Source of the DNA: Escherichia coli
Lineage (GTDB): Bacteria > Pseudomonadota > Gammaproteobacteria > Enterobacterales > Enterobacteriaceae
DNA length: 64,000 nucleotides
Direction: 5' to 3' (one strand)
Assembly (NCBI RefSeq): GCF_003334355.1
Contig: NZ_QOWP01000012.1
Both the position numbers and the translations under genes were made by a program. Shown here piece after piece: positions 4,138 to 31,514 of this stretch. The notes beneath the pieces were generated by a model that was not told the origin of the DNA, searched no databases, and saw only the letters and a program-made list of their open reading frames with translations. Positions within the stretch are counted from its first letter, which is position 1. Each line of letters begins with the position of its first letter.

Positions 4138-5856
4138 ATGAAACAAACGGTTGCAGCTTATATCGCCAAAACACTCGAATCGGCAGGGGTGAAACGCATC
4201 TGGGGAGTCACAGGCGACTCTCTGAACGGTCTTAGTGACAGTCTTAATCGCATGGGCACCATCGAGTGGATGTCCACCCGCCACGAAGAAGTGGCGGCCT
4301 TTGCCGCTGGCGCTGAAGCACAACTTAGCGGAGAACTGGCGGTCTGCGCCGGATCGTGCGGCCCCGGCAACCTGCACTTAATCAACGGCCTGTTCGATTG
4401 CCACCGCAATCACGTTCCGGTACTGGCGATTGCCGCTCATATTCCCTCCAGCGAAATTGGCAGCGGCTATTTCCAGGAAACCCACCCACAAGAGCTATTC
4501 CGCGAATGTAGTCACTATTGCGAGCTGGTTTCCAGCCCGGAGCAGATCCCACAAGTACTGGCGATTGCCATGCGCAAAGCGGTGCTTAACCGTGGCGTTT
4601 CGGTTGTCGTGTTACCAGGCGACGTGGCGTTAAAACCTGCGCCAGAAGGGGCAACCATGCACTGGTATCATGCGCCACAACCAGTCGTGACGCCGGAAGA
4701 AGAAGAGTTACGCAAACTGGCGCAACTGCTGCGTTATTCCAGCAATATCGCCCTGATGTGTGGCAGCGGCTGCGCGGGGGCGCATAAAGAGTTAGTTGAG
4801 TTTGCCGGGAAAATTAAAGCGCCTATTGTTCATGCCCTGCGCGGTAAAGAACATGTCGAATACGATAATCCGTATGATGTTGGAATGACCGGGTTAATCG
4901 GCTTCTCGTCAGGTTTCCATACCATGATGAACGCCGACACGTTAGTGCTACTCGGCACGCAATTTCCCTACCGCGCCTTCTACCCGACCGATGCCAAAAT
5001 CATTCAGATTGATATCAACCCAGCCAGCATCGGCGCTCACAGCAAGGTGGATATGGCACTGGTCGGCGATATCAAGTCGACTCTGCGTGCATTGCTTCCA
5101 TTGGTGGAAGAAAAAGCCGATCGCAAGTTTCTGGATAAAGCGCTGGAAGATTACCGCGACGCCCGCAAAGGGCTGGACGATTTAGCTAAACCGAGCGAGA
5201 AAGCCATTCACCCGCAATATCTGGCGCAGCAAATTAGTCATTTTGCCGCCGATGACGCTATTTTCACCTGTGACGTTGGTACGCCAACGGTGTGGGCGGC
5301 ACGTTATCTAAAAATGAACGGCAAGCGTCGCCTGTTAGGTTCGTTTAACCACGGTTCGATGGCTAACGCCATGCCGCAGGCGCTGGGTGCGCAGGCGACA
5401 GAGCCAGAACGTCAGGTGGTCGCCATGTGCGGCGATGGCGGTTTTAGCATGTTGATGGGCGATTTCCTCTCAGTAGTGCAGATGAAACTGCCAGTGAAAA
5501 TTGTCGTCTTTAACAACAGCGTGCTGGGCTTTGTGGCGATGGAGATGAAAGCTGGTGGCTATTTGACTGACGGCACCGAACTACACGACACAAACTTTGC
5601 CCGCATTGCCGAAGCGTGCGGCATTACGGGTATCCGTGTAGAAAAAGCGTCTGAAGTTGATGAAGCCCTGCAACGCGCCTTCTCCATCGACGGTCCGGTG
5701 CTGGTGGATGTGGTGGTCGCCAAAGAAGAGTTAGCCATTCCACCGCAGATCAAACTCGAACAGGCCAAAGGATTTAGCTTGTATATGTTGCGCGCAATCA
5801 TCAGCGGACGCGGCGATGAAGTGATCGAACTGGCGAAAACGAACTGGCTAAGGTAA
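4138..5856 (+). CDS. poxB: Pyruvate oxidase (ubiquinone-dependent, thiamine-diphosphate and FAD enzyme)
   Basis: 572 aa; N-terminus [31 protein letters not shown]; GDG thiamine-diphosphate motif ([10 protein letters not shown]). Confidence 0.95.
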
Positions 5857-15391: not shown

Positions 15392-15492
<101 letters not shown>

Positions 15493-16709: not shown

Positions 16710-17198
16710 TTATTGCAACTGGAAGAACCGCCGACTGGTCGAGGGAACGAACAGCAGCATCAGGATGAGCATATCCGGCAGCTTCTGCAGCATCAGGCTA
16801 TGGAAGATTTCACGTTTTGATTCACCGGGAATGCTGAACAGCTCCGGATAACCATACCCCAGCGAAGCCGCCCACAAGTAACTTGCGGCGGTGATTTGTG
16901 TCAGCAGATATAGCCAGCGCGCCCAGCGACGCCCTTTCACCAGTGAAAACGCACACCAGATCTCGATAAAAACCAGCACCAGACTGCTTAAAAAGACCAG
17001 CGTTAAGCTCCAGGTTTGTACGCTGCGATGAATGAACTCGCCAATACCGCGCACGCCCAGCGTATTGAAAATCATCAGCACGTCGAGGCCACGGATCATA
17101 ATAATGGCGAGCGCCGCTACCTGCACCAGCGCAGGCACATTCAGGCGAGCATGAGATGAAGATGTTTTCTTAAAAAATCCCAACGTTTCGTCTTCCAT
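16710..17198 (-). CDS. ybjO: Uncharacterised inner membrane protein YbjO
   Basis: 162 aa; several hydrophobic segments. Confidence 0.85.
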   Translation of the reverse strand: MEDETLGFFKKTSSSHARLNVPALVQVAALAIIMIRGLDVLMIFNTLGVRGIGEFIHRSVQTWSLTLVFLSSLVLVFIEIWCAFSLVKGRRWARWLYLLTQITAASYLWAASLGYGYPELFSIPGESKREIFHSLMLQKLPDMLILMLLFVPSTSRRFFQLQ

Positions 17199-17257
17199 GA
17201 AAACAATGCCGCGGCATGCGCGGCATTATGTAGCCAGGTTGGCAAATTTTAGTGTCT

Positions 17258-18103
17258 TCAGCCACGTCTTGCACGCTGGATATCGCGTATCCGCTGTTTT
17301 TCTGCGCGAGCCATCAGATACCAGGCGATAAATCCGACAATTCCGACCGCACCGAGAATTAACGTTGCAAGGGCGTTGATTTCCGGATTCACCCCCATCC
17401 GCACGCTGGAAAAGACCAGCATCGGTAACGTGGTGGCTCCCGGCCCAGAAACAAAGCTGGCGATCACCAGATCATCAAGCGACAAAGTAAAAGCCAGTAA
17501 CCAGCCAGAAATGATCGCGGGCATGATCATCGGTAGCGTAATGACGAAAAATACTTTCAGCGGCGTCGCACCGAGATCCATCGCTGCTTCTTCTATCGAG
17601 CGATCCAGTTCCCGCAATCTTGAAGAAATAACGACCGCCACATAAGCCGTACAAAAAGTGACATGCGCCAGCCAGATGGTGAGCATACCGCGGTCCGCAG
17701 GCCAGCCAATGGCATGAGCAAGCGCGACGAATAATAACAACAGCGACAAGCCCGTGATGACATCTGGCATCACCAGCGGCGCGGTGATCATAAAGGCAAA
17801 ACCATTTGATCCGCGAAACCTGCCAAAACGCACCAGCACCACCGCTGCAATAGTCCCGAGGATCGCCGCCGCCGTTGCCGCACAGGCAGCAATTGTCAGG
17901 CTTAAACCAACCGCACTCATCATCGCGTCATCGCGCAATAACTCACCATACCAGCGCGTTGACCAGCCGGCCCACACCGTCACCAGCTTCGAGCTGTTAA
18001 ACGAATAGATAACCAGCATCAGCATTGGCGCGTAGAGAAAGGTAAAGCCCAGCAGCAAAATCACAATCCGCCAGGGCGAACGAACTACCGGTAAATTATT
18101 CAT
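17258..18103 (-). CDS. potI: Putrescine ABC transporter permease
   Basis: 281 aa from the ATG whose complement is at 18101-18103; start overlaps the potH stop. Confidence 0.92.
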   Translation of the reverse strand: MNNLPVVRSPWRIVILLLGFTFLYAPMLMLVIYSFNSSKLVTVWAGWSTRWYGELLRDDAMMSAVGLSLTIAACAATAAAILGTIAAVVLVRFGRFRGSNGFAFMITAPLVMPDVITGLSLLLLFVALAHAIGWPADRGMLTIWLAHVTFCTAYVAVVISSRLRELDRSIEEAAMDLGATPLKVFFVITLPMIMPAIISGWLLAFTLSLDDLVIASFVSGPGATTLPMLVFSSVRMGVNPEINALATLILGAVGIVGFIAWYLMARAEKQRIRDIQRARRG

Positions 18104-19053
18104 CCGTGTTCTCCCACGCTTTTTTGCTGGTGTTTGTGGAACCACATTATCGGCACAATTAGCAGCAGCAACATGATGATCGCTACCGCCGAGGCCACCG
18201 GCCAGTCGCGGTTATTGAAAAACTCTTGCCATAGCACGCGCCCGATCATGATGCTGTCCGGGCCACCGAGCAGTTCCGGGATCACAAACTCGCCCACAGC
18301 CGGGATAAACACCAGCATCGATCCGGCAATAATCCCACCTTTAGTCAGCGGCACGATCACAGTAAAGAACGTTTTCAGCGGTCGTGCACCGAGATCCAGC
18401 GCTGCTTCCACCAGCGAATAATCAATACGAATCAACGCGGTATAAATCGGCAGTACCATAAACGGCACGTAAGCGTAAACAATGCCGATATAAACGGCCA
18501 GATTGGTATGCAGAATGGTCAGCGGTTGATCGATAACCCCCAGCCACAGCAGAAAATTATTCAGCACACCGTTGTTTTTTAATATTCCCATCCAGGCGTA
18601 GACACGAATCAGAAACGAGGTCCACGACGGCAGGATCACCAGTAGTAATAAGATATTACGGGTCGAAGGCTTACTGTGCGCCACTGCCCACGCCAGCGGA
18701 TAGCCGATCAGTAAACAGCAAAATGTCGAAATCGCAGCCACCTGTAGCGACTGGAGATAAGCATCGAAATAGAGCGGATCGTCGGTCAGTTGCAGGAAAT
18801 TACCGAGATTAAGAGTGATGGACAGTTGCCCGTCAGCCCACTCCATCAGTTCGGTATAAGGCGGAATGGCGCGCGCCATCTCCGCCAGACTTATTTTAAA
18901 GACGATCAGAAATGGCAGCAGAAACAGCAAGATCAACCAGATATATGGCAACGCAATGACCAGTTTGCGCCCATGCTTCATTTGCAGCTGCGACAACCAC
19001 AGCTTAAATCCGCCCGGCGGTTTCGACTGGGCAGCAGGTTCAAGTGTATTCAT
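18100..19053 (-). CDS. potH: Putrescine ABC transporter permease
   Basis: 317 aa; polytopic permease. Confidence 0.92.
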   Translation of the reverse strand: MNTLEPAAQSKPPGGFKLWLSQLQMKHGRKLVIALPYIWLILLFLLPFLIVFKISLAEMARAIPPYTELMEWADGQLSITLNLGNFLQLTDDPLYFDAYLQSLQVAAISTFCCLLIGYPLAWAVAHSKPSTRNILLLLVILPSWTSFLIRVYAWMGILKNNGVLNNFLLWLGVIDQPLTILHTNLAVYIGIVYAYVPFMVLPIYTALIRIDYSLVEAALDLGARPLKTFFTVIVPLTKGGIIAGSMLVFIPAVGEFVIPELLGGPDSIMIGRVLWQEFFNNRDWPVASAVAIIMLLLLIVPIMWFHKHQQKSVGEHG

Positions 19054-19062
19054 CTTTGCTCC

Positions 19063-20196
19063 TTAAACCGTCAGCACCACACAGCTGTCCACTTCCCAGC
19101 ACAAACGCACTTCGTCGCCCCAGGTCGGTAACCCTTTACGATGACGATGGGCGTTTTGTAGCTGGGCGCTAATCATCTGCCCACTTTTCAGACGAACGTG
19201 ATACACCGAAAGATCGCCGAGATAGGCAATATGTATCACCTCCCCCACCGCGAAGTTACAACCATTGGCGGGCGGCTCTTCGCAAAGCATGATTTTTTCC
19301 GGGCGCAGAGCCACATGTACCGGCACGTTATCGACCACCGAGGCATCCGCGTCGACTTTCAGTGGATGCACCAGCCCCGGCGAATCAAGCACCAGGCCAT
19401 CTTCCTGACGCTCTTTGAGTACGCCTTCAAAGACGTTTACCGAGCCAATAAATTCGGCGCTATAGCGGGTAGTCGGATGCTCGTAGATCTCTTCCGGTTC
19501 GCCAATCTGGACAAATTTCCCACGATTCATAATGGCGATGCGCCCCGCCATGGTCATCGCCTCTTCCTGATCGTGAGTAACCATCACGCAGGTCACACCG
19601 ACGCGCTCCAGAATATCCACCACTTCAAGCTGCATCCGGTCACGCAATTTTTTATCCAGCGCGCCCATCGGTTCGTCGAGCAGCAGAAGTTTTGGGCGCT
19701 TGGCAAGGCTTCGGGCCAGCGCCACACGCTGTCTCTGACCGCCGGAAAGCTGATGCGGTTTGCGTTTGGCGAACTCCTGCATGTGCACCAGGCCGAGCAT
19801 CTCATTGACCCGACTGGCAATTTCCGCTTTCGGTAGTTTGTCCTGTTTCAGGCCAAAAGCGATGTTCTGTTCCACGGTCATATGCGGAAACAGCGCGTAA
19901 GACTGAAACATCATATTGATGGGGCGCAGGTAAGGCGGAACCTGTGACAAATCGACGCCATCAAGCATTATCTGTCCGGCAGAAGGTTGTTCGAAACCTG
20001 CCAGCATACGCAGCAGCGTGGACTTGCCACAGCCGGATGCGCCCAGCAGCGCGAAGATTTCACCTTTGTAGATAGTCAGGCTGACATCATCCACCGCATG
20101 TTGACCATCGTAGGATTTGGTGAGGTTGCGGATTTCTAATAGCGGCGTCAACGCCTTACGGGTTTTCGCCTGCGGGCGAGGGATAGCGTCATTCAC
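19063..20196 (-). CDS. potG: Putrescine ABC transporter ATP-binding protein
   Basis: 377 aa from a GTG start (complement of CAC at 20194-20196; longest ORF runs to 20277); Walker A GASGCGKST and signature LSGGQRQRV. Confidence 0.9.
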   Translation of the reverse strand: MNDAIPRPQAKTRKALTPLLEIRNLTKSYDGQHAVDDVSLTIYKGEIFALLGASGCGKSTLLRMLAGFEQPSAGQIMLDGVDLSQVPPYLRPINMMFQSYALFPHMTVEQNIAFGLKQDKLPKAEIASRVNEMLGLVHMQEFAKRKPHQLSGGQRQRVALARSLAKRPKLLLLDEPMGALDKKLRDRMQLEVVDILERVGVTCVMVTHDQEEAMTMAGRIAIMNRGKFVQIGEPEEIYEHPTTRYSAEFIGSVNVFEGVLKERQEDGLVLDSPGLVHPLKVDADASVVDNVPVHVALRPEKIMLCEEPPANGCNFAVGEVIHIAYLGDLSVYHVRLKSGQMISAQLQNAHRHRKGLPTWGDEVRLCWEVDSCVVLTV

Positions 20197-20290
20197 GGCT
20201 GCTCTCCGGCATTGAATGTGTGCAAGCGCACCATGATGGTGCGAATTGCCGGCGTGTGTGGTGCACCCGTCCGGCATCTACGACTGCGGA

Positions 20291-21403
20291 TTATTTTCCG
20301 CTCTTCACTTTGGTCCACGCGCGGGTGCGCACACGGTCGATTTTCGGGTCCTGCACTTTCAGAGTGAACAGCTTCGCACGGACATCCGCAGGCGGATAAA
20401 TACCCGGGTTATCACGAACTTCCGCACTCACCAGCGGCGTGGCTGCTTTATTGGCGTTAGCATAGAACACATGGTCAGAGATATGTGCCACCACATCCGG
20501 ACGCAGCAGGTAATTCAGGAACTGATAGGCTTCGTCTTTATTTTTGGCATCGGCAGGCATGGCGAATACATCAAAGAACGCCATCGCCCCTTCTTTTGGA
20601 ATCGAGAACGAGACATTCACGCCATTCTTCGCTTCCTTCGCGCGGTTTGACGCCTGCCAGACATCACCTGCCCAACCAATCGCCACGCAGATGTCACCAT
20701 TCGCCAGGTCATTAATATATTGAGATGAATGGAAATAACGAATGTTCGGGCGCAGCTTTAACAGCAGATCGGTAGCAGGTCCGGTGTAATCATCCGCTTT
20801 AGTGCTGTTGGGATCTTTGCCGAGATAATTCAGCACGGTAGCAAAAACTTCTTCTGGCGCATCGAGGAAAGAGACACCGCAGCTTTTCAGTTTTTCCAGA
20901 TTTTCAGGCTTGAGGATCAAGTCCCAGCTATCGACGGGCGCGTTTTCGCCCAGCACCGCTTTGACTTTATCGACGTTATAGCCAATCCCGGTCGTCGCCC
21001 ACATATAGGGCATAGCAAATTTATTGTCGGGATCGTGTTTGGCGACCAACTTCAGCAGTTCCGGGTCGAGATTCTTCCACTCCGGCAATTTGCTTTTATC
21101 CAGCGGCTGGAAAACTCCCGCTGTCAGCTGGCGTTCAAGAAAGCTTGCTGACGGCACCACCAGGTCAAAGCCGGTGCTCCCGGCCATTAATTTGCCTTCC
21201 AGTACTTCGTTAGAGTCGAAAACATCGTAGACGACTTTAATACCGGTTTCTTTTTCAAAGTTAGCCACCGTGTCGGGGGCGATATAATCAGACCAGTTAT
21301 AAATGTGGAGTGTTTTTTGTTCAGCCGCGAGCGTGCCGACAGAGACGGCCATCAGAGCACCCGCAACCAGACCCGAAAGCCATTTTTTATTTAAGGCGGT
21401 CAT
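20291..21403 (-). CDS. potF: Putrescine-binding periplasmic protein
   Basis: 370 aa from the ATG (MTALNKKWLSGLVAGALMA signal peptide); longest ORF runs to 21553. Confidence 0.92.
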   Translation of the reverse strand: MTALNKKWLSGLVAGALMAVSVGTLAAEQKTLHIYNWSDYIAPDTVANFEKETGIKVVYDVFDSNEVLEGKLMAGSTGFDLVVPSASFLERQLTAGVFQPLDKSKLPEWKNLDPELLKLVAKHDPDNKFAMPYMWATTGIGYNVDKVKAVLGENAPVDSWDLILKPENLEKLKSCGVSFLDAPEEVFATVLNYLGKDPNSTKADDYTGPATDLLLKLRPNIRYFHSSQYINDLANGDICVAIGWAGDVWQASNRAKEAKNGVNVSFSIPKEGAMAFFDVFAMPADAKNKDEAYQFLNYLLRPDVVAHISDHVFYANANKAATPLVSAEVRDNPGIYPPADVRAKLFTLKVQDPKIDRVRTRAWTKVKSGK

Positions 21404-21753
21404 ATCTCTTTCCTTCTGAAAGTTCGTTAACAAACGAACAAAAGTTGTCACACTGAAAGATATGCAATAAACGTGCATATTTTTTATCGGCGCGGTGTAA
21501 GAAAAGAGAACTCTCTCCCGGCCAGCACTGCTCGCTATATAAAAGCATCGCAAGAATAACTTTAGCCAGGGTTTGAGACTATAGCTCGGATTAAAAAACG
21601 GTATTTAACAAATTTTTATGCGTATTTGCTCTATGTGATAAAGCCAAATCGACACAAGAGAAGTGAAATAATCTTTAAGAAAAGGTTAAAAACAGCAGAT
21701 AATTTTGCAGCGCGCAGCCACTGCACCAGCGACTGCGTGCTCGAAAGGAGTTA

Positions 21754-22230
21754 TCAGTGGAGGAAATAGTTTTCGGTAACGTTGTTTTGCCCTTCATCGT
21801 CAGTCGGTAACAGCAGTTGATGGGCATTAGCTTCAAGAATGACCATCGAAATCTGCTCTTCGCTCTGACGCACGAACCATGCAAACTGCTCATAGGTTAC
21901 GCCCTGCATAACGGATAAAGACTGGCAAACCACCAGCTTTGGCAGATTATCATCCTGCATATCAAGAAATGCTTTCACGGTCAGCGAACTGGCATTGATG
22001 GCAGATAAATCCGCCGCCAGCGGCAATACGGCTGAAGGTCGGACTTCCGCCATGGCAGAAAACAGGATCGTGTTATCGATCAGATCGATTTTGGCATCAA
22101 AGACACCGTCGAAATTCTGCATATGGGGCAGATGCAGAGCCTGACAGTTATCACATTCAAAAAAACTCATCCCCAGGTCATCGAGCCATTGACGCAGCGT
22201 ATCCAGACCAGGAACGACCAGCGATGTCAT
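21754..22230 (-). CDS. ybjN: YbjN, putative sensory-transduction regulator family
   Basis: 158 aa from the ATG (MTSLVVPGLDTLRQWL); last gene of the ybjC-nfsA-rimK-ybjN cluster. Confidence 0.88.
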   Translation of the reverse strand: MTSLVVPGLDTLRQWLDDLGMSFFECDNCQALHLPHMQNFDGVFDAKIDLIDNTILFSAMAEVRPSAVLPLAADLSAINASSLTVKAFLDMQDDNLPKLVVCQSLSVMQGVTYEQFAWFVRQSEEQISMVILEANAHQLLLPTDDEGQNNVTENYFLH

Positions 22231-22317
22231 AATTTTGTACAACCTCTTTCGATAAAAAGACCGGCACAGCTTACGCAAAAAGCGCAGGCAAAACCATGAT
22301 CAGTAATGTGATTGCGA

Positions 22318-23220
22318 CTAACCACCCGTTTTCAGGCAATATTCTGTCGTAGCGTGGCGTTCGATCCAGCGGATCATTTTACCCGCGATGTCGATACCAG
22401 TGGTTTTTTCTATTCCTTCCAGCCCCGGCGACGCATTCACTTCCATCACCAACGGCCCGCGATTAGCACGCAGAATATCCACACCAGCAACGTCCAGCGC
22501 CATCGTTCGCGCGGCTTTTATCGCGATTTCACGCTCCTGTGGTGTGATACTGGCGACGCTTGCCGCGCCGCCACGATGCAAATTGGAACGAAAATCGCCC
22601 TCTTTCGCCCGCCGTTCAATCGCAGCGACCACTTCATCGCCAACAACCAGACAGCGGATATCGCACCCTTGCGCCTCTTTGATATATTCCTGCACCAGAA
22701 TATGCGCGTTCAGACCGCGGAAAGCGTCAATCACGCTTTCCGCCGCCTGACGCGTCTCCGCCAGCACGACGCCAATTCCCTGCGTGCCTTCAACCAACTT
22801 GACCACCAGCGGCGCACCACCGACCATGTCGATTAAATCGCTGGTATCATCCGGCGAATGCGCAATGCCCGTGACAGGCAGGTCGATGCCCTGACGCGCC
22901 AGCAGTTGCATGGAACGCAATTTGTCACGCGCCCGGGCAATGGCGACCGACTCATTGAGCGGATAGCTCCCCAGCATCTCGAACTGGCGCAGTGCCGCCG
23001 TCCCATAAAAGGTAATGGCGGTGCCAATACGCGGGATCACTGCGTCAAAATGGGGTAACTTGCGGCCTTTGTAGTGAATAGAAGACGCCGCAGGATTTAT
23101 GTTCATGTAGCAAGAAAGCGGATCAAGAATTTCAACCAGGTGACCGCGCTGTATAGCGGCTTCACGCAGCCGCTTACACGAATAGAGCGTTCCATCCCGG
23201 GACAATATGGCAATTTTCAC
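22318..23220 (-). CDS. rimK: Ribosomal protein S6 L-glutamate ligase (ATP-grasp)
   Basis: 300 aa; [18 protein letters not shown]; ATP-grasp fold. Confidence 0.93.
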
Positions 23221-23280
23221 CCTGCACCTCTCTGTCAGACCTGGTCAAAAGCCCGCGTATCATACATCGACGTGGCGGTT

Positions 23281-24003
23281 TTAGCGCGTCGCCCAACCCT
23301 GTTTGTGCAAATAATCCAGAATAAATGGGCGGCTTTCTTTAATGATTGTTCGGCGGATATGATCGCTCCAGGTATCCCGGCGATTATTGCTGCCACGGGT
23401 GAGGTAATATTCAGCCAGTTGTTCGTCATACTGCGCCAGTGCGTCTTTATCCAGCGGTTGATAGCTGTTTTCATGCACCAAAATGGAGGACGGTAAACGC
23501 GGCTTAAGATCCGGATTATCCGCAGGCCAGCCAAGGCACAGCCCAAACAGCGGCAGAACATGCTGCGGTAATTTCAGCAGTTTCGTCACCGCTTCAATAT
23601 TATTGCGCAGGCCGCCGATATATACGCCGCCCAATCCCAGCGATTCCGCTGCGATTAATGCATTCTGCGCCATCATTGCCGTATCAACGACACCGAGCAA
23701 CAGTTGTTCCGCCAGGCCGAGCTGAGCATCCGGACAGATCTGTAAATGGCGGTTAAAGTCGGCACAGAACACCCAGAACTCCGCCGCTTGCGCTACGTGT
23801 TTTTGCCCGCCGGTCAGCGTCACCAGTTCTTCACGTAACGCTTTGTCGGTAATGCGAATAATGCTACTGCACTGCAAAAAACTGGAACTGGACGTCGCAC
23901 GGGCGCTGTTAATAATCGCCTCACGCTGCGCTTCGGAAATGGGTTCATCAGTGAAATGGCGAATGGAGCGATGGCCACAAATAAGTTCAATGGTTGGCGT
24001 CAT
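23281..24003 (-). CDS. nfsA: Oxygen-insensitive NADPH nitroreductase NfsA
   Basis: 240 aa; MTPTIELICGHRSIRHFTDEPIS. Confidence 0.93.
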   Translation of the reverse strand: MTPTIELICGHRSIRHFTDEPISEAQREAIINSARATSSSSFLQCSSIIRITDKALREELVTLTGGQKHVAQAAEFWVFCADFNRHLQICPDAQLGLAEQLLLGVVDTAMMAQNALIAAESLGLGGVYIGGLRNNIEAVTKLLKLPQHVLPLFGLCLGWPADNPDLKPRLPSSILVHENSYQPLDKDALAQYDEQLAEYYLTRGSNNRRDTWSDHIRRTIIKESRPFILDYLHKQGWATR

Positions 24004-24274
24004 TATCTTTTTCTCTTTCTGAACGTGAATATTGCGGTGGACGGTTCATCAGCTGTGGGGCAAGACGTTTTGCCACCTGAAGAATAACCACCACCGCAGC
24101 GGGAAGCATGAGCAAAACACCGAGAAAAATCATCAGAATCTGCACTTCTGGCCGAGAAAATGGCTCAGGCAGCGACAGGGAGTCACTTACCGACAGCAGC
24201 GCCACCGCCAGTAGCATCATTCCGATAAATTCCAGTATCAACACGCCTTTAGGCAATTTACCGATCGCGCGCAT
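23987..24274 (-). CDS. ybjC: Small inner-membrane protein YbjC
   Basis: 95 aa; two hydrophobic helices; 3' end overlaps the nfsA start by 17 nt. Confidence 0.85.
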   Translation of the reverse strand: MRAIGKLPKGVLILEFIGMMLLAVALLSVSDSLSLPEPFSRPEVQILMIFLGVLLMLPAAVVVILQVAKRLAPQLMNRPPQYSRSEREKDNDANH

Positions 24275-24433
24275 ACGCTTCCCTCTGCAAAGTGAGCCTT
24301 CAGTCTAAAACTTTTCACTGTATTGTGTTTAACAGTTATAGCTTTTAGCAATTAATGCAACAGGTTAAACCTACTTTCAGCGAATACATTTTAGCGTGAT
24401 CATTACAGGCATAAATCTATGAGGAGAGAAATA

Positions 24434-24691
24434 ATGCAAACCGTTATTTTTGGTCGTCCGGGTTGCCCTTACTGTGTGCGTGCAAAAGATCTGGCTGAGA
24501 AATTGAGCAATGAACACGATGATTTTCAGTATCACTATGTAGATATTCGTGCGGAAGGGATCACTAAAGAAGATCTACAACAAAAGGCAGGTAAACCCGT
24601 AGAAACCGTGCCGCAGATTTTTGTCGATCAGCAACATATCGGCGGCTATACCGATTTTGCTGCATGGGTGAAAGAAAATCTGGACGCCTGA
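24434..24691 (+). CDS. grxA: Glutaredoxin 1
   Basis: 85 aa from the ATG at 24434; CPYC active site (GRPGCPYCVRAK). Confidence 0.93.
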   Translation: MQTVIFGRPGCPYCVRAKDLAEKLSNEHDDFQYHYVDIRAEGITKEDLQQKAGKPVETVPQIFVDQQHIGGYTDFAAWVKENLDA

Positions 24692-24701
24692 TCGTCTGAC
24701 A

Positions 24702-24736
24702 AGCCCTCGCGTTGAGGGCTTTACTGATTTTTTCTG
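24702..24736. terminator. Bidirectional intrinsic terminator between convergent grxA and ybjM
   Basis: Hairpin AGCCCTCGCG-ttg-AGGGCT followed by TTACTGATTTTTT. Confidence 0.55.
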
Positions 24737-25098
24737 TGCTGTGGTTTAAACAAACTACTGATAAATAAGAAACACAGTGCCCCCAGCGCACACCAGAACA
24801 CCGCACTTAATAACCATGCCAGCTCTTGCCAGAATGAGCGCGTCGGTGAAAAAAACAGCCGCATAATGAGCATCGAACAGGGTGCCGCCAGCATTGCGCC
24901 AAACAGAGGTTTCAGGACTTCTCTACGCTGTGAAAAGAAGCTGGCGACTGCTCCAGGAAGAATGAAAAATAGCAAGCCGATTTCAGGATGCCCGGCAGCC
25001 CGAAAAGCGCCTTTCATGTGCGTCGCCAGAAAAAGGCACACCACAATGAAGAGGACAAAACAGCAGATTGCCCCCGCCCAACGTTGTTTATGTTTCAC
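24721..25098 (-). CDS. ybjM: Uncharacterised inner membrane protein YbjM
   Basis: 125 aa; four hydrophobic segments. Confidence 0.85.
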   Translation of the reverse strand: MKHKQRWAGAICCFVLFIVVCLFLATHMKGAFRAAGHPEIGLLFFILPGAVASFFSQRREVLKPLFGAMLAAPCSMLIMRLFFSPTRSFWQELAWLLSAVFWCALGALCFLFISSLFKPQHRKNQ

Positions 25099-25367
25099 TC
25101 GTTCCTCCTGACACTGCGTCTATCGAACACATTTTTCGCCAGTGTGGCGTTCAGTAAGATAAAGCCGCTTCGCATTCCATGCTAATATAGGCCAACGCAA
25201 TTCATATAGCCGTTGATACCTAATGTGATTACACTAGTAAAATATATTGTTACTTTACTATCGTTTAGGTGCGCTGAATGAATCTGCGCCCTGAATTCTG
25301 GTAAAAAACATTATCGTAAATTACCATTTCTTTCAACAGCTTACTAGTAAACAAGAAGTTAGCCTCC

Positions 25368-27053
25368 GTGAATATAAACGTCGCCGAATTGTTAAATGGG
25401 AATTACATTCTGTTATTATTTGTGGTCCTCGCGCTTGGGCTATGTCTCGGAAAGTTACGACTTGGTTCGATCCAACTGGGTAATTCCATTGGCGTTTTAG
25501 TCGTATCGCTGTTATTAGGCCAACAACATTTCAGCATTAACACCGATGCGCTTAATCTTGGCTTTATGCTGTTTATTTTCTGTGTTGGGGTTGAAGCCGG
25601 ACCGAACTTTTTTTCCATTTTTTTTCGCGATGGGAAAAATTACCTAATGTTAGCACTGGTGATGGTTGGCAGTGCGCTGGTGATCGCCTTAGGGTTAGGT
25701 AAGCTGTTTGGCTGGGATATTGGCCTGACGGCCGGTATGTTAGCAGGCTCTATGACGTCGACACCGGTTCTGGTCGGTGCTGGCGATACACTGCGTCATT
25801 CCGGCATGGAAAGCAGGCAGCTCTCACTGGCACTGGATAATCTGAGCCTCGGGTATGCCTTAACCTATTTAATCGGTCTGGTGAGTTTGATTGTTGGTGC
25901 GCGTTACTTGCCGAAATTGCAGCATCAGGACTTACAGACCAGCGCCCAGCAAATCGCCCGCGAACGTGGCCTGGACACTGATGCCAACCGTAAGGTTTAT
26001 TTACCGGTGATCCGCGCCTATCGCGTCGGCCCGGAGCTGGTGGCCTGGACCGACGGCAAAAATCTGCGTGAACTGGGTATTTATCGACAAACCGGCTGCT
26101 ACATTGAACGTATTCGACGTAACGGGATTCTGGCAAATCCAGACGGTGATGCCGTGCTACAAATGGGCGATGAAATAGCGTTGGTAGGCTATCCCGACGC
26201 CCATGCCCGACTCGATCCCAGCTTCCGTAACGGTAAAGAAGTTTTCGATCGTGACCTTCTCGACATGCGTATCGTCACTGAAGAAGTGGTCGTTAAAAAC
26301 CATAACGCTGTAGGTAAACGTCTCGCACAACTGAAGTTGACCGATCACGGTTGCTTCCTTAACCGCGTCATTCGTAGCCAGATTGAGATGCCGATAGATG
26401 ACAACGTCGTGCTTAACAAAGGTGACGTTTTACAAGTCAGCGGTGATGCCCGTCGCGTAAAAACCATCGCCGATCGCATCGGCTTTATCTCGATTCACAG
26501 CCAGGTCACTGACCTGCTGGCATTTTGCGCCTTCTTTGTTATTGGGCTGATGATCGGGATGATCACCTTCCAGTTCAGCACATTCAGTTTCGGCATGGGG
26601 AACGCTGCCGGGTTGTTATTCGCCGGAATTATGCTGGGCTTTATGCGTGCTAACCACCCGACCTTCGGTTACATTCCGCAGGGTGCATTAAGCATGGTGA
26701 AAGAGTTCGGCTTGATGGTGTTTATGGCAGGCGTTGGTCTGAGCGCCGGTAGCGGTATTAATAACGGCCTGGGCGCGATTGGCGGTCAGATGTTGATTGC
26801 CGGATTGATTGTCAGTCTGGTGCCCGTGGTTATCTGTTTCTTGTTCGGTGCTTATGTATTGCGAATGAACCGCGCGCTGTTGTTCGGCGCAATGATGGGC
26901 GCACGTACCTGCGCGCCGGCAATGGAGATCATCAGTGATACAGCTCGCAGTAACATCCCGGCGCTGGGCTATGCGGGCACCTATGCAATCGCCAACGTCC
27001 TGCTGACGCTGGCAGGGACAATCATCGTCATGGTATGGCCAGGATTAGGATAA
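25368..27053 (+). CDS. ybjL: Putative AAE-family transporter YbjL with two TrkA-C (RCK_C) domains
   Basis: 561 aa from an apparent GTG start at 25368; hydrophobic N- and C-terminal halves around a soluble central region. Confidence 0.88.
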
Positions 27054-27165
27054 AACTGAAGTTGCCCTGAAAATGAAATTTTTTTGCACAACCGCAGAAC
27101 TTTTCCGCAGGGCATCAGTCTTAATTAGTGCCACTGCTTTTCTTTGATGTCCCCATTTTGTGGAG

Positions 27166-27209
27166 CCCATCAACCCCGCCATTTCGGTTCAAGGTTGATG
27201 GGTTTTTTG
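27166..27209 (+). terminator. Intrinsic terminator downstream of ybjL
   Basis: CCCATCAACC...GGTTGATGGG 10-bp stem followed by TTTTTTG. Confidence 0.55.
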
Positions 27210-27227
27210 TTATCTAAAATTTATCTA

Positions 27228-27764
27228 CTACCCTGCAACCCTCTCAACCATCCTCAAAATCTCCTCGCGCGATAGCGGCTTACGGTCGGTGACAAAATGC
27301 AGCGTCATCCCCTCAATAAACGCATCAAGCGCGCGGGCGGTTCCGGGTTCAAACCATTGTTCGAGCGTTTGCTGACTGCGCTGCATCCAGTTTTGCATTA
27401 CCGTTTTTAATAGCGGTTTTCGGCTAGCCAGCGCGTAGAGCTGGTACATCAGCTCCATATTATCCGGCGTTGCAACCTGTGAGCTGTAGATCATATCGGT
27501 GATAGCCTGGCATGCGCCTTGAGCATCACTAACATCGCTAAAAAATGCCTGATATTGCCGGGACATAATCTCAGTAAAACTGCTGAACGCCTCCAGCAAC
27601 AACTCATCAATTCCTGAAAAATAGTAGGTCATCGATCCCAACGGTACCCCGGCAAGGGTAGCAATTTTGCGGTGCGTAACAGCATGTATTCCGTAAAGTT
27701 TCACCGCCTCCAGCGTGGCCTGGATAATTTTTTCTCGCCGTTGCGGATCGTTAGCGCGACGCAT
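27228..27764 (-). CDS. rcdA: TetR-family transcriptional regulator RcdA (YbjK)
   Basis: 178 aa from the ATG (complement at 27762-27764) with GAGGA upstream; TetR-type N-terminal helix-turn-helix. Confidence 0.88.
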
Positions 27765-27847
27765 GTCATTTCCTCTGTCTGCAATTGTGTACAAATGTAC
27801 ACAACCTTGCTAATGTTGTCTTCCCTCTTCTTATTTTGACGTGATCT

Positions 27848-29056
27848 ATGACCGTAAATTCTTCACGTAATGCATTGAAACGCCGAACCTGGGCGCTGTT
27901 TATGTTCTTCTTTTTGCCAGGCCTGTTAATGGCGTCCTGGGCAACCCGTACGCCTGCTATCCGCGATATTCTCTCTGTCTCGATCGCTGAAATGGGCGGT
28001 GTTCTCTTTGGTCTGTCGATCGGTTCGATGAGCGGTATTCTCTGCTCGGCGTGGTTAGTGAAACGCTTTGGGACACGTAATGTCATCCTGGTCACGATGT
28101 CCTGCGCATTGATCGGGATGATGATATTAAGTCTGGCACTCTGGCTGACATCGCCCCTGCTCTTTGCCGTTGGTCTCGGCGTCTTTGGGGCAAGTTTTGG
28201 TTCTGCGGAAGTGGCGATAAACGTTGAAGGTGCCGCCGTTGAGCGAGAAATGAATAAAACGGTTTTGCCGATGATGCACGGTTTTTATAGCCTGGGCACG
28301 CTGGCAGGCGCTGGTGTCGGGATGGCACTGACGGCCTTTGGCGTTCCGGCAACGGTGCACATTTTATTGGCGGCGCTGGTAGGTATCGCGCCTATTTATA
28401 TCGCCATTCAGGCAATCCCTGACGGTACGGGCAAAAATGCTGCCGATGGCACCCAGCATGGCGAAAAAGGCGTACCTTTTTATCGCGATATCCAGTTGCT
28501 GCTGATTGGTGTTGTGGTGCTGGCGATGGCCTTTGCCGAAGGTTCTGCCAACGACTGGTTACCCTTATTAATGGTTGACGGTCACGGTTTTAGCCCCACT
28601 TCCGGCTCGCTGATTTATGCCGGTTTTACCCTGGGGATGACCGTTGGACGCTTCACTGGCGGTTGGTTCATCGACCGTTACAGTCGCGTTGCCGTGGTTC
28701 GGGCCAGTGCGCTAATGGGGGCGTTGGGTATTGGGCTGATTATTTTTGTCGATAGCGCCTGGGTCGCTGGGGTGTCTGTTGTACTCTGGGGAATGGGTGC
28801 CTCGCTGGGCTTCCCGCTGACCATTTCTGCCGCCAGCGATACCGGCCCCGATGCACCAACCCGCGTCAGTGTGGTAGCAACGACCGGTTATCTGGCTTTC
28901 CTCGTCGGGCCGCCGCTGCTGGGCTATCTCGGCGAACATTATGGATTACGTAGTGCAATGCTGGTTGTACTGGCGCTGGTTATTCTCGCGGCTATTGTCG
29001 CGAAAGCCGTCGCCAAACCCGATACCAAAACGCAGACGGCGATGGAGAATAGTTGA
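27848..29056 (+). CDS. ybjJ: MFS transporter YbjJ
   Basis: 402 aa; 12 predicted transmembrane segments. Confidence 0.88.
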
Positions 29057-29871
29057 TGAGCATTAAATTAATTGCGGTAGACATGGATGGTACTTTCTTA
29101 AGCGATCAAAAAACCTATAACCGTGAGCGGTTTATGGCTCAGTATCAGCAAATGAAAGCACAAGGCATTCGCTTTGTGGTCGCCAGCGGGAATCAATATT
29201 ATCAGTTGATCTCTTTCTTCCCTGAAATTGCTAATGAAATTGCCTTTGTGGCTGAAAACGGCGGCTGGGTAGTGAGTGAAGGCAAAGATGTTTTTAATGG
29301 CGAGCTGTCGAAGGATGCCTTTACTACTGTCGTGGAACATTTGCTGACGCGCCCGGAAGTGGAAATTATTGCCTGCGGAAAAAATAGCGCCTATACGCTC
29401 AAAAAATATGACGATGCCATGAAAACGGTGGCGGAAATGTATTATCACCGTCTGGAATACGTCGATAACTTTGACAACTTAGAAGATATTTTCTTTAAGT
29501 TTGGCCTGAATCTTTCCGATGAACTGATTCCACAAGTACAAAAAGCATTACATGAGGCCATCGGCGATATTATGGTGCCAGTCCACACCGGCAACGGCAG
29601 CATCGATCTGATTATCCCCGGCGTACATAAAGCCAATGGCCTTCGCCAACTGCAGAAATTATGGGGAATAGACGACAGCGAAGTGGTGGTCTTTGGCGAT
29701 GGCGGTAACGATATTGAGATGCTGCGTCAGGCAGGCTTTAGTTTTGCAATGGAAAATGCCGGCAGCGCGGTCGTCGCAGCGGCAAAATACCGGGCAGGCT
29801 CCAATAACCGTGAAGGCGTACTGGATGTGATCGATAAAGTGCTTAAACACGAAGCGCCATTTGACCAATAA
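29056..29871 (+). CDS. ybjI: HAD-superfamily Cof-like phosphatase YbjI
   Basis: 271 aa; [14 protein letters not shown] with DxDGT HAD motif I; clear paralogue of ybiV at 55262; start overlaps the ybjJ stop. Confidence 0.9.
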   Translation: MSIKLIAVDMDGTFLSDQKTYNRERFMAQYQQMKAQGIRFVVASGNQYYQLISFFPEIANEIAFVAENGGWVVSEGKDVFNGELSKDAFTTVVEHLLTRPEVEIIACGKNSAYTLKKYDDAMKTVAEMYYHRLEYVDNFDNLEDIFFKFGLNLSDELIPQVQKALHEAIGDIMVPVHTGNGSIDLIIPGVHKANGLRQLQKLWGIDDSEVVVFGDGGNDIEMLRQAGFSFAMENAGSAVVAAAKYRAGSNNREGVLDVIDKVLKHEAPFDQ

Positions 29872-29956
29872 AAACGGCAGCACGCCCGGCAACACAATAC
29901 CTGAATGAAGGCTGCATAATTCGCGGAAATTAACCCGCTGCATTATTTCAGGCGAA

Positions 29957-30241
29957 ATGATTATGAAAAATTGTCTACTGTTGGGCGCGCTTTTAATGGG
30001 CTTTACTGGTGTGGCGATGGCGCAAAGTGTCACCGTCGATGTGCCGAGTGGATACAAAGTGGTTGTAGTTCCTGATTCAGTCAGCGTTCCACAAGCGGTC
30101 AGCGTCGCGACTGTGCCGCAAACCGTCTATGTGGCTCCTGCGCCAGCTCCGGCTTACCGCCCGCATCCTTATGCTCGCCATCTTGCCAGCGTAGGTGAAG
30201 GGATGGTTATCGAACACCAGATTGACGACCATCACCATTAA
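29957..30241 (+). CDS. ybjH: Small secreted protein YbjH
   Basis: 94 aa; signal peptide MKNCLLLGALLMGFTGVAMA. Confidence 0.85.
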   Translation: MIMKNCLLLGALLMGFTGVAMAQSVTVDVPSGYKVVVVPDSVSVPQAVSVATVPQTVYVAPAPAPAYRPHPYARHLASVGEGMVIEHQIDDHHH

Positions 30242-30281
30242 TTCGAGAATGCCTGATCGCACAAAGCAGTCAGGCATTTTT

Positions 30282-31514
30282 TTACCCTTCGTGAGAATTT
30301 CCCATCTGTTTATCTTTTAAAAAGATAACCATCAGCGACAGCCACAAAATTCCGTTGACAAGGTTGAAGAGATTAAACTGTCCGTTGCCCCCGTTCAGCC
30401 AGGCATGTTTGCTGATTTCAATACCAACGGTAAAGATCAGCATTTGCAGCATTCCCATCGCCGCAGAAACCGTACCTTTACTCATATCGCTGGCAAACAG
30501 GGTTAATCGCACCAGTCCCGCATTCGCCAGACCAATACCGAAAGCATAAATACTTAACCCGGCAGTCATCCATAAATACGCGTGCGATGAGATAACCGTT
30601 GCCGCAGCAGCGACCAACAGACCAATCATAATCGGCCAGCCGCCCATAATTATCAGCGAACGTACGGTGCGGCGCGAGGTCAGACGCGCTAACAGCAAGT
30701 TACCCGCAATTAACGCCCCGAAAATAGGCACTTGCAGCAAGCCATATTCATAGCTGCTCAACTGCTCGCCGGTAATGATGATAATCGGCGACTGGGCGAT
30801 CCACGCCAGCAATGGCAGGCTAACGAATCCCAGCGCCAGCGCCCCCGCCACAAAGCGGCCGTTCTTCAGCACCAGCTTATAGTCACGACCGAGTTCTTTC
30901 AGTGACAGTTTCTCGCCTATACGCGTGGCGGTTTCAGGCATGGCTCGTTGCAGACCGAAAAAGGAGATCGCTGCCAATGCGGCAAACAAAACAAACATCC
31001 CCTCCCAGGGCAGCACATGGATCCACGCCGCGCCCACCAGCGGACCAAGTAGCGGAGCAATCAGCGCCACGTTCGCCATCAGCGCGGTGATCTTGATACA
31101 AACCGCCTCTTCGAAGGATTCCTGAATTGCGGCGTATCCCACAGCGCCAATGAAACAGAGGCTTATGCCCTGCAAGAAGCGCAACAGGGTGAATTGTTCA
31201 ATGTTTTGCGCCAGCAATATTGCCAGACAGGTGACGATAAACCACACCACTCCCGCCAGCATCACCGGACGGCGACCAATACGATCCGACAGCGGCCCCA
31301 GCAGCCATTGTAAAAACATCCCGCCCGCCAGATACGCGGTCATCGAAGTAGGAACCCAATCAATGCCCGCCTGATATTGTTCCACCACGGCCAACATACC
31401 GGGTTGAATCATATCGTTGCCGATATAGGTTGAAAATTCGTAAAGCACCAGACAGAGAGGGAAAAGTAACGCCTGACGTCCAAGCCTGGCACCGGAAGCT
31501 AATTTATTTTGCAT
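30282..31514 (-). CDS. mdfA: MFS multidrug efflux pump MdfA (Cmr)
   Basis: 410 aa; 12 transmembrane segments; [20 protein letters not shown]. Confidence 0.93.

Follow-up and report, generated by a model that had tools for sequence, protein, structure and literature searches.

The window analyzed here, a 64,000-nucleotide stretch of an Escherichia coli chromosome, has the gene order ybjO-potIHGF-ybjN-rimK-nfsA-ybjC, grxA, ybjM, ybjL, rybB, rcdA, ybjJ-ybjI-ybjH and mdfA. Four of these genes, ybjO, ybjC, ybjM and ybjH, encode small membrane or exported proteins with no assigned function. A first-pass annotation had described them in this way, with open reading frame (ORF) coordinates that agree with ours and names identical to those of RefSeq, and both hydropathy and the RefSeq annotation bear the description out. 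The features discussed below are collected in Table 1. Protein topologies were derived from hydropathy and the positive-inside rule, and gene distributions from a comparative sample of about 80 species loci; ybjO and ybjM are present in every sampled locus covering their position. Sequence searches of the PDB gave no match for YbjO, YbjC, YbjM or YbjH, and literature searches by b-number returned unrelated papers only.

Table 1. Positions of the four genes and of associated features in the window
Feature	Coordinates	Strand	Remarks
ybjO, as annotated	16710-17198	-	162 aa; PF10767 family, inner-membrane protein, four predicted helices
ybjO, likely real coding sequence	16710-17183	-	157 aa; TTG 17183-17181; GGAAG Shine-Dalgarno 17196-17192
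potI-ybjO intrinsic terminator	17200-17227	-	hairpin 17205-17227, U-tract 17200-17203; between potI stop and ybjO ribosome-binding site
ybjC	23987-24274	-	95 aa; DUF1418 inner-membrane protein, two transmembrane segments; Pfam, NCBIfam
MarA/SoxS box	24344-24358	-	GCATTAATTGCTAAA; within ybjC-grxA divergent promoter region
grxA	24434-24691	+	converges with ybjM
grxA/ybjM hairpin	24701-24721	+	within 29-nt spacer; shaped like an intrinsic terminator of grxA
ybjM	24721-25098	-	125 aa; GTG start 6 nt past AGGAGG; monocistronic, convergent with grxA
ybjH, as annotated	29957-30241	+	94 aa; likely start ATG 29963, giving 92 aa
YbjH signal peptide	to 30022	+	cleavage between AMA and Q; from sequence read and hydropathy
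Mature YbjH peptide	30023-30238	+	72 aa; C-terminal end EHQIDDHHH
ybjH intrinsic terminator	30245-30283	+	core stem 30250-30257 / 30269-30276, U7 30277-30283; abuts stop codon of convergent mdfA

YbjO matches Pfam family PF10767 over its full length (3e-65, model positions 1-140 of 141). The family occurs across Enterobacterales, and ybjO has a dN/dS of 0.03-0.12. Three segments exceed the hydropathy threshold, and AlphaFold2 predicts four helices in a model of low confidence (pLDDT 59.3, pTM 0.48). When this model was compared with AFDB50 using Foldseek, only YbjO-family members of other Enterobacterales were recovered and no functional lead was obtained; the next matches (E about 0.1) were uncharacterized proteins, a few of them labeled DUF2127 or DUF7144. 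The "dehydrogenase-like" label of ybjO is unsupported here. The start codon can be placed with more precision. Published TetRP ribosome profiling assigns the ybjO start to a TTG at +15, 15 nt inside the annotated ORF. A TTG or GTG occupies this inner position in 65/65 species loci, compared to 20/65 for the annotated ATG, and the length of YbjO counted from there is 155-157 aa in all 63 of the 63 distinct orthologue sequences. The true start of ybjO is probably the TTG at 17183, five codons downstream of the RefSeq ATG.

The terminator hairpin upstream of ybjO has a fold energy of -20.7 kcal/mol (z = -3.45). Among genera the hairpin is maintained by differing sequences, always with TTTTC directly after it. 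YbjO is predicted to be a TTG-started, four-helix inner-membrane protein encoded immediately behind the potFGHI terminator, and because of this position it is probably a low-level product. Judging from sequence only, its expression may depend on terminator read-through or on a weak local promoter.

YbjM is likewise a full-length family member, matching Pfam PF11045 over model positions 1-116 of 117 (7.7e-53), with four transmembrane segments by hydropathy that mark it as an inner-membrane protein. A secondary Pfam match to Acyl_transf_3 (E = 5.9e-4) is weak and probably stems from hydrophobic composition. The gene was found in 81/81 sampled loci at 45-100% identity, with a dN/dS of 0.025-0.14 and the conserved motifs GLLFF.LPG and WQELAW. 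It has been observed to respond transcriptionally to acetate, and its overexpression gave no acetate tolerance (PMC12093944). The arrangement that best fits the sequence would be a four-segment inner-membrane protein whose gene has a promoter of its own and a strong ribosome-binding site.

The first-pass annotation had ybjM converging on grxA with a shared terminator. The convergence holds, and the spacer contains one hairpin, whose final base doubles as the first letter of the ybjM stop codon, but the second part of the claim does not stand as worded. The hairpin is followed by UUUACUGAUUUUUU on the plus strand and by GUCAGACG on the minus strand; a U-rich tail is present only in the grxA direction, and therefore this is not a symmetric shared terminator, nor a bidirectional intrinsic one. 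A ybjM transcript would run into the grxA terminator hairpin. The GCCCTC...GAGGGC hairpin was found in examined genera with spacers of 26-34 nt and is missing where the spacer is 0-6 nt.

Of the four proteins, YbjH is the least explained, and it alone might repay targeted experimental work. Published TetRP ribosome profiling places its start at +6, and the true start is probably the ATG at 29963, two codons past the RefSeq start. A Fur-box-like stretch noticed by eye across the start agrees at only about 11/19 positions and lacks conservation in Citrobacter; we rejected it. The N-terminal sequence MKNCLLLGALLMGFTGVAMA, followed by QS, has a basic n-region, a hydrophobic h-region and an AxA signal-peptidase I site and contains no lipobox, as expected of a Sec-exported protein. 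The A22-Q23 pair is invariant among 39 YbjH homologues, which share an N-terminal AQxxTVDVPxGY motif and a C-terminal SVxEGMxIEHQxDDHH motif, as members of one orthologous group would; the EHQxDDHH at the C-terminus is invariant. We propose Sec-type export of a mature periplasmic peptide of about 72 aa, rich in valine, proline and alanine, whose invariant C-terminus is acidic and contains many histidines. AlphaFold2, run with the 39-sequence alignment, returned no confident fold (pLDDT 61.7, pTM 0.20).

Searches of Pfam and NCBIfam gave no family match for YbjH, and no description of the family is known. A single UniRef entry carries the label DUF3300, a family that Pfam did not report. Among 5.8 billion proteins, YbjH forms 227 clusters, and all named ones are from Enterobacteriaceae. 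A profile search of 1.84 billion representatives yielded only 20 hits, consisting of family fragments and three long repeat proteins; the latter share a short NVTVxAPxGY strand motif with YbjH and were judged to be motif or composition matches rather than homologues. The gene occupies the ybjI-mdfA gap in 15/52 loci, all of them Escherichia, Citrobacter-type, or an assembly labeled Raoultella (L018), and homologues lie at other loci in Enterobacter and Buttiauxella. Relocation between sites would be unusual for a core-genome orphan such as ybjH. The terminator of ybjH is stable on the plus strand (-20.0 kcal/mol, z = -6.4) and has a weak tail on the minus strand, and the mdfA-ybjH pair has been listed among convergent excludons (PMC12288877). 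The dN/dS of ybjH is about 0.08. It is a stand-alone gene that has its own terminator, and its chromosomal site differs between genera.

One speculative interpretation, which we regard as quite unlikely, is that YbjH is a mini-protein that binds metal in the periplasm and serves as a metallochaperone or a buffer. It is suggested by the invariant C-terminal E-H-Q-x-D-D-H-H(-H) cluster, which could coordinate a divalent metal; by one study in which the ybjH transcript co-varied with the Fur/iron-regulon genes fec, fep, fhu and suf (PMC5294996); and by the movement of ybjH, as a self-contained unit, between three or more positions on Enterobacteriaceae chromosomes.

YbjC matches Pfam PF07214 at full length (1.8e-42 over residues 1-92) and exceeds the threshold of NCBIfam NF007883 (209.6 bits, cut-off 173), with two strong hydrophobic segments by hydropathy. 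As the first-pass annotation had it, ybjC opens the ybjC-nfsA-rimK-ybjN cluster and overlaps nfsA (23281-24003) by 17 nt, at 23987-24003. The overlap is exactly 17 nt in all 42 loci that have ybjC. Of 71 Enterobacteriaceae species loci, 42 carry the gene and 29 do not (it is absent in about 40% of sampled genera). The difference takes the form of a clean indel, about 250-300 nt long. Among Enterobacteriaceae genera, ybjC is an optional gene that shows presence/absence polymorphism. In all 29 loci without it, nfsA and grxA are retained, as is the shared regulatory region.

Within that region, the GCATTAATTGCTAAA box is a marbox, identical to the site assigned to grxA<>ybjC by MarA ChIP (PMC5684230). 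The ybjC-nfsA operon has been described as having a SoxS class I promoter activated by SoxS and MarA (PMC11936445, PMC6375286). A strict marbox regular expression matches only in E. coli-type loci; by alignment, the entire divergent regulatory region is conserved in ybjC-positive and ybjC-negative genera alike. We propose that YbjC is a two-segment inner-membrane protein encoded by the first cistron of a ybjC-nfsA(-rimK-ybjN) transcript activated by SoxS, MarA and Rob. Since the ybjC stop codon lies 17 nt within nfsA, terminating ribosomes may be positioned to reinitiate on nfsA. The geometry for such translational coupling, with the ybjC stop overlapping the nfsA start, is present and conserved, as read from the DNA.

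One rival explanation, that one or more of the four is an annotation artefact or a decaying pseudogene, could draw on the annotated ybjO ATG, which has no Shine-Dalgarno sequence, on the position of that gene behind a terminator and its very low lacZ fusion activity, and on YbjH, which lacks a confident fold and occurs in some E. coli as deletion alleles of 64-72 aa. It is effectively refuted by dN/dS values of 0.03-0.28 over the four genes, which indicate purifying selection, by the constant length of YbjO, and by the start-site peaks of ybjO and ybjH in ribosome profiling. Over 99% of complete E. coli genomes also carry each gene at nearly full length: counting a gene as present when at least 80% of it is aligned, we found ybjH in 5421, ybjC in 5390, ybjM in 5420 and ybjO in 5418 of 5426. 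Neither outcome that the first-pass annotation named as refuting, lack of conservation or absence of translation in ribosome profiling, was observed: all four genes are conserved, under selection and in the E. coli core, and translation start sites are documented for ybjO and ybjH. The four are real genes and more than chance ORFs. A narrower doubt concerns ybjC, which could act mainly in cis as a translated leader that delivers ribosomes to nfsA, the protein itself having little function. The invariant overlap fits this idea, as do the weak Shine-Dalgarno-like GAGAAA that is all that precedes nfsA, the dN/dS of ybjC (0.21-0.28, the highest of the region), the many genera in which the last few ybjC codons are all that remains, and the one documented nitrofuran phenotype of a ybjC insertion (ybjC::kan), which was ascribed to polarity on nfsA (PMC2680486). 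However, a dN/dS in this range is still far below 1, and an alignment of 42 sequences shows little or no variation at residues within both transmembrane segments (P8, E15, the L55-P-A-A stretch and APQL), which points to selection at the protein level. A YbjC-GFP fusion inserts stably into the membrane, where it localizes, and a ybjC knockout altered butanol tolerance (PMC4888631). Moreover, the leader is not required, because genera without ybjC express nfsA directly. We consider a mainly cis-acting role unlikely; YbjC is moderately constrained yet dispensable in many genera.

Another possibility is that the four proteins work together. The first-pass annotation had proposed that they are envelope-stress or redox accessory factors, and they could belong to a common response of that kind, for example by aiding NfsA and GrxA at the membrane. 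The proposal is supported for ybjC alone, and indirectly, through its operon: ybjC and nfsA share one transcript that SoxS and MarA control (PMC5684230, PMC6375286). Nothing ties ybjO or ybjH to redox or envelope stress. The case for ybjM would rest on its position beside grxA, on its induction by deoxycholate in Salmonella (PMC3261920), and on a Salmonella sigma-E ChIP peak in the ybjL/ybjM spacer (PMC4577112). Yet ybjM converges on grxA and is not co-transcribed with it, the Salmonella mutant is not bile-sensitive (PMC3261920), and a scan of both strands of 25099-25367 in E. coli for GGAACTT-N15-17-TCnAA, requiring at least 5/7 in the -35 element plus the -10 core, found no sigma-E promoter upstream of ybjM. 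Even for ybjC, polarity accounts for the insertion phenotype (PMC2680486), the 42-sequence alignment contains no conserved cofactor-binding or Cys motif, and the 29 of 71 loci that lack the gene keep nfsA, grxA and their promoter region. A common response of all four is thus very improbable. The four genes represent four unrelated families in four separate transcription contexts with differing phylogenetic distributions and do not form a module. With high confidence, we interpret them as independent members of the E. coli core genome, each encoding a previously annotated small envelope protein of restricted lineage distribution, and not as a system.

There is no sign of a new kind of system in this region, and the four are among the genes without an assigned role in the bacterial genome that has been studied most. 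Some practical consequences follow. The RefSeq starts of ybjO and ybjH, probably off by five and two codons, respectively, affect tagging and the design of deletions, and the polarity of ybjC insertions on nfsA is relevant to how nitrofurantoin resistance is read.

All four genes had been annotated before and are already known, and each can be compared with its named counterpart. YbjH is 99-100% identical to the RefSeq "protein YbjH", an orphan family without a Pfam or NCBIfam model. The ybjO gene occupies the same position, potI to rlmC, as E. coli ybjO (YbjO_DH-like / DUF2593, PF10767) and shares its full-length Pfam match; it differs in its start, for which both RefSeq and the first-pass annotation probably used a codon five codons too far upstream. 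The ybjM gene shares with E. coli ybjM (PF11045, "putative inner membrane protein of Enterobacteriaceae") the convergence with grxA and the full-length Pfam match. Finally, ybjC agrees with ybjC of E. coli K-12 (b0850, DUF1418 / PF07214) in its position, its 17-nt overlap with nfsA and its marbox, with PF07214 at full length and NF007883 over the cut-off; there is no substantive difference between them, and the two are alleles of the same gene.

We conclude that ybjO, ybjC, ybjM and ybjH are real genes, on four independent lines of evidence. What the first-pass annotation observed is correct, in that all four genes are genuine, conserved and translated, and the coordinates it gave agree exactly with the annotated ORFs (see table). 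The 13.5-kb span was matched in 5424 of 5426 complete Escherichia coli genomes (best match 99.4% identity, full length), and each gene is present at a coverage of at least 80% in 5390-5421 of the 5426. In pairwise comparisons with 80 species-representative loci of Enterobacteriaceae, all anchored on ybjL, an unrelated neighbour, dN/dS was 0.03-0.12 for ybjO, 0.025-0.14 for ybjM, about 0.08 for ybjH and 0.21-0.28 for ybjC; neighbours of known function gave 0.007-0.11. Three of the four proteins have full-length Pfam matches (YbjO, PF10767 at 3e-65; YbjM, PF11045 at 7.7e-53; YbjC, PF07214 at 1.8e-42), and YbjC scores above the curated NCBIfam cut-off. Absence of translation had been named as a result that would count against these genes; the supplement of a tetracycline-inhibited ribosome profiling (TetRP) study reports start-site peaks for ybjO and for ybjH (PMC4909307).

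Positions of the four small envelope genes and two neighbours in the window
Gene	Position	Strand	Type
ybjO	16710-17198	-	annotated ORF
nfsA	23281-24003		
ybjC	23987-24274	-	annotated ORF
grxA	24434-24691	+	
ybjM	24721-25098	-	annotated ORF
ybjH	29957-30241	+	annotated ORF

The RefSeq gene order is rlmC, ybjO, potIHGF, ybjN, rimK, nfsA, ybjC; grxA, ybjM, ybjL, rcdA; ybjJ, ybjI, ybjH, mdfA. RybB, a known sigma-E-dependent sRNA absent from the earlier account, lies between ybjL and rcdA (27133-27211, +; Rfam RF00110, 105 bits, full length), and a match to the Rfam sRNA ES036 (CssrF) lies just downstream of rlmC (15415-15457, -; 42.2 bits versus a gathering score of 37.6). For potG (19063-20277, -), the mechanical ORF has 404 aa versus 377 aa in the RefSeq annotation, and candidate in-frame starts lie upstream of the annotated one. 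Two of the relative loci are anomalous. L077 (CACSKA010000002.1) is labelled Chryseobacterium sp. 18061, yet its whole ybjO-to-mdfA locus is enterobacterial and its YbjL is 93% identical to that of the window; contamination or a wrong label is the probable explanation. L002 (Escherichia sp. MOD1-EC7003) has an identical YbjL (100%), but potF was not detected there, the potI alignment covers only 22%, nfsA and grxA lie 662 nt apart versus 431 nt, and the right flank lacks rcdA through mdfA, which points to local rearrangement or insertions in this genome.

YbjO has three hydropathy segments above threshold and four helices predicted by AlphaFold2. Its annotated ATG has no Shine-Dalgarno sequence, lies 8 nt past a terminator-like hairpin, and is an ATG in only 20 of 65 loci. 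The codon aligned with Leu6 is TTG in 55 of these loci and GTG in 10, is preceded by a conserved GGAAG, and is the sole in-frame start in most genera; starting there, all 63 distinct orthologue sequences are 155-157 aa long. The same TTG was called independently by TetRP (+15 from the annotated start, MGFFKK...; PMC4909307), although the lacZ fusions of those authors were too weak to confirm it. The potI-ybjO hairpin (-20.7 kcal/mol, z = -3.45) is kept by differing sequences across genera, and TTTTC always comes after it. We read it as the potFGHI terminator, in which case ybjO expression would probably be low and need terminator read-through or a weak local promoter. Directly after the potI stop and upstream of this hairpin is a TAAAAT hexamer (17246-17251, -), conserved in nearly all genera aligned, which could be the -10 element of a transcript starting with the terminator or part of the terminator context. 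A Foldseek search with the low-confidence YbjO model found YbjO-family proteins at 32-47% identity in Sodalis, Pantoea (listed as Enterobacter agglomerans), Pectobacterium, Edwardsiella, Erwinia, Serratia and Yersinia, so the family extends across the Enterobacterales. The remaining matches were weak and to uncharacterised proteins only, a few labelled DUF2127 or DUF7144, and the Pfam label "dehydrogenase-like" is unsupported by this model and search.

A redox-stress link exists for ybjC only, and it is indirect. The ybjC promoter is class I SoxS, with nfsA co-transcribed (PMC11936445, PMC6375286); the spacer between the divergent grxA and ybjC contains the exact reported MarA ChIP 15-mer (24344-24358; PMC5684230), and the sRNA SdsN represses both ybjC and nfsA (PMC10953011). 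YbjC has two strong hydrophobic segments, and YbjC-GFP localises to the membrane (PMC4888631). A ybjC knockout raised butanol tolerance (PMC4888631), and ybjC::kan raised the nitrofurantoin MIC 2.25-fold, which its authors explained by polarity on nfsA (PMC2680486). The reported 17-nt overlap with nfsA is borne out by the coordinates. Among 71 loci in which the nfsA start and grxA are both present, ybjC occurs in 42, with an nfsA-to-grxA distance of 431-662 nt and, without exception, an overlap of exactly 17 nt. The other 29, among them loci labelled Enterobacter, Lelliottia, Kosakonia and Leclercia, plus Cedecea and C. sedlakii, have a distance of 166-243 nt, and several retain an ORF tail ...NDAD(Y/D) at the same -17 position. 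Our interpretation, including the direction of change, is that most of an ancestral ybjC has been deleted. This comparison is new to us, but minor. The divergent regulatory region adjoining grxA is conserved with or without ybjC. Both TM segments contain invariant residues in 42 sequences, so selection acts on the protein itself and goes beyond the act of its translation. A published description of YbjC as "thought to be a membrane-bound oxidase" lacks sequence support: its 95 aa include neither a cofactor motif nor a conserved cluster of Cys or His.

The gene ybjM, found in all 81 loci, starts with GTG 6 nt downstream of AGGAGG and encodes a protein with four strong hydrophobic segments. YbjM is fast-evolving (45-100% identity across the 81 loci), with conserved motifs GLLFF.LPG and WQELAW. 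It had been proposed that ybjM and grxA converge on a shared terminator. They do converge, across 29 nt, on an 8-bp hairpin (24701-24721), but "shared" is overstated: read on the grxA strand, the hairpin tail is UUUACUGAUUUUUU; read on that of ybjM, it is GUCAGACG. The GCCCTC...GAGGGC hairpin was seen in examined loci with 26-34 nt spacers and is absent where the spacer is 0-6 nt. From the tails and this dependence on spacer length, the hairpin is grxA's terminator, and for ybjM at most a non-canonical 3' structure. Stress links of ybjM are transcriptional only. In Salmonella it is deoxycholate-induced, with no mutant phenotype (PMC3261920), and the ybjL/ybjM spacer has a sigma-E ChIP peak (PMC4577112), for which we found no matching consensus promoter in the window; an acetate study found modest induction and no benefit of overexpression (PMC12093944).

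Of the four proteins, YbjH is the least well characterised. Neither Pfam nor NCBIfam has a family that matches it, the PDB contains no relative, and AlphaFold2 gave no confident fold. Among 5.8 billion proteins it forms only 227 clusters at 90% identity, all the named clusters being from Enterobacteriaceae, and a profile search of 1.84 billion representatives gave only 20 matches. Hydropathy indicates a signal peptide of the classical n/h/c type that ends in AMA|Q and lacks a lipobox. In the alignment, the mature N-terminus (AQxxTVDVPxGY) and the C-terminus (SVxEGMxIEHQxDDHH) are invariant; the intervening Ala/Pro linker is variable, and the indels cluster in it. Because Met3 is nearly invariant and the +6 ATG was called by TetRP (PMC4909307), YbjH is probably 92 aa long. 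Some E. coli have in-frame deletion alleles of 64-72 aa (64 and 72 aa in proteins P0117, on 176 contigs, and P0077, and in genome match H22, NZ_CP091665.1), from which the conserved PSGYKVV...TVYV segment, bounded by short GTC-(G/T)AT-GTG repeats, is missing.

The location of ybjH varies. Of 52 loci, 15 have the gene between ybjI and mdfA: those of Escherichia, of several Citrobacter (youngae, werkmanii, braakii, portucalensis and unnamed species), and L018, labelled Raoultella. The ybjI-mdfA gap in these 15 is about 415-440 nt in most and up to about 900 nt; in the other 37, Salmonella included, it is below 120 nt in all but one. Clear homologues (66-78% identity) lie at unrelated sites in Enterobacter and Buttiauxella, adjoining a TetR gene in the former and flanked by ispA and a 4HBT thioesterase gene in the latter. 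A strong terminator belonging to ybjH (-20 kcal/mol, z = -6.4, U7) abuts the mdfA stop, and mdfA-ybjH is a listed convergent excludon (PMC12288877). In one study ybjH mRNA co-varied with fec, fep, fhu and suf genes (PMC5294996); we found no convincing Fur box at ybjH. Citrobacter-type 5' UTRs (six loci aligned: L008, L009, L010, L012, L015, L019) contain an inverted repeat of 6-7 bp (CACTGGA...TCCAGTG; variant, GCTGGA...TCCAGT) that lies between a putative -10 element and the ribosome-binding site. The repeat is missing from Escherichia. It could be an operator or leader hairpin. A long antisense ORF (30077-30277, -) has 66 aa here and reaches 90-109 aa in relatives (L003, L005, L006, L008 and others); it probably arises only because the Val/Pro/Ala codons that make up ybjH keep stop codons out of the opposite frame.

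The suggestion that these genes encode redox or envelope-stress accessory factors has support for ybjC alone, and that support is indirect. YbjH, a relocating, exported orphan with an invariant His- and acid-rich tail, is the sole mildly interesting thread, and is unlikely to lead to a metal-related function. The four genes represent four unrelated families that already have names, differ in distribution and are transcribed in separate contexts, and they are nothing new in kind.
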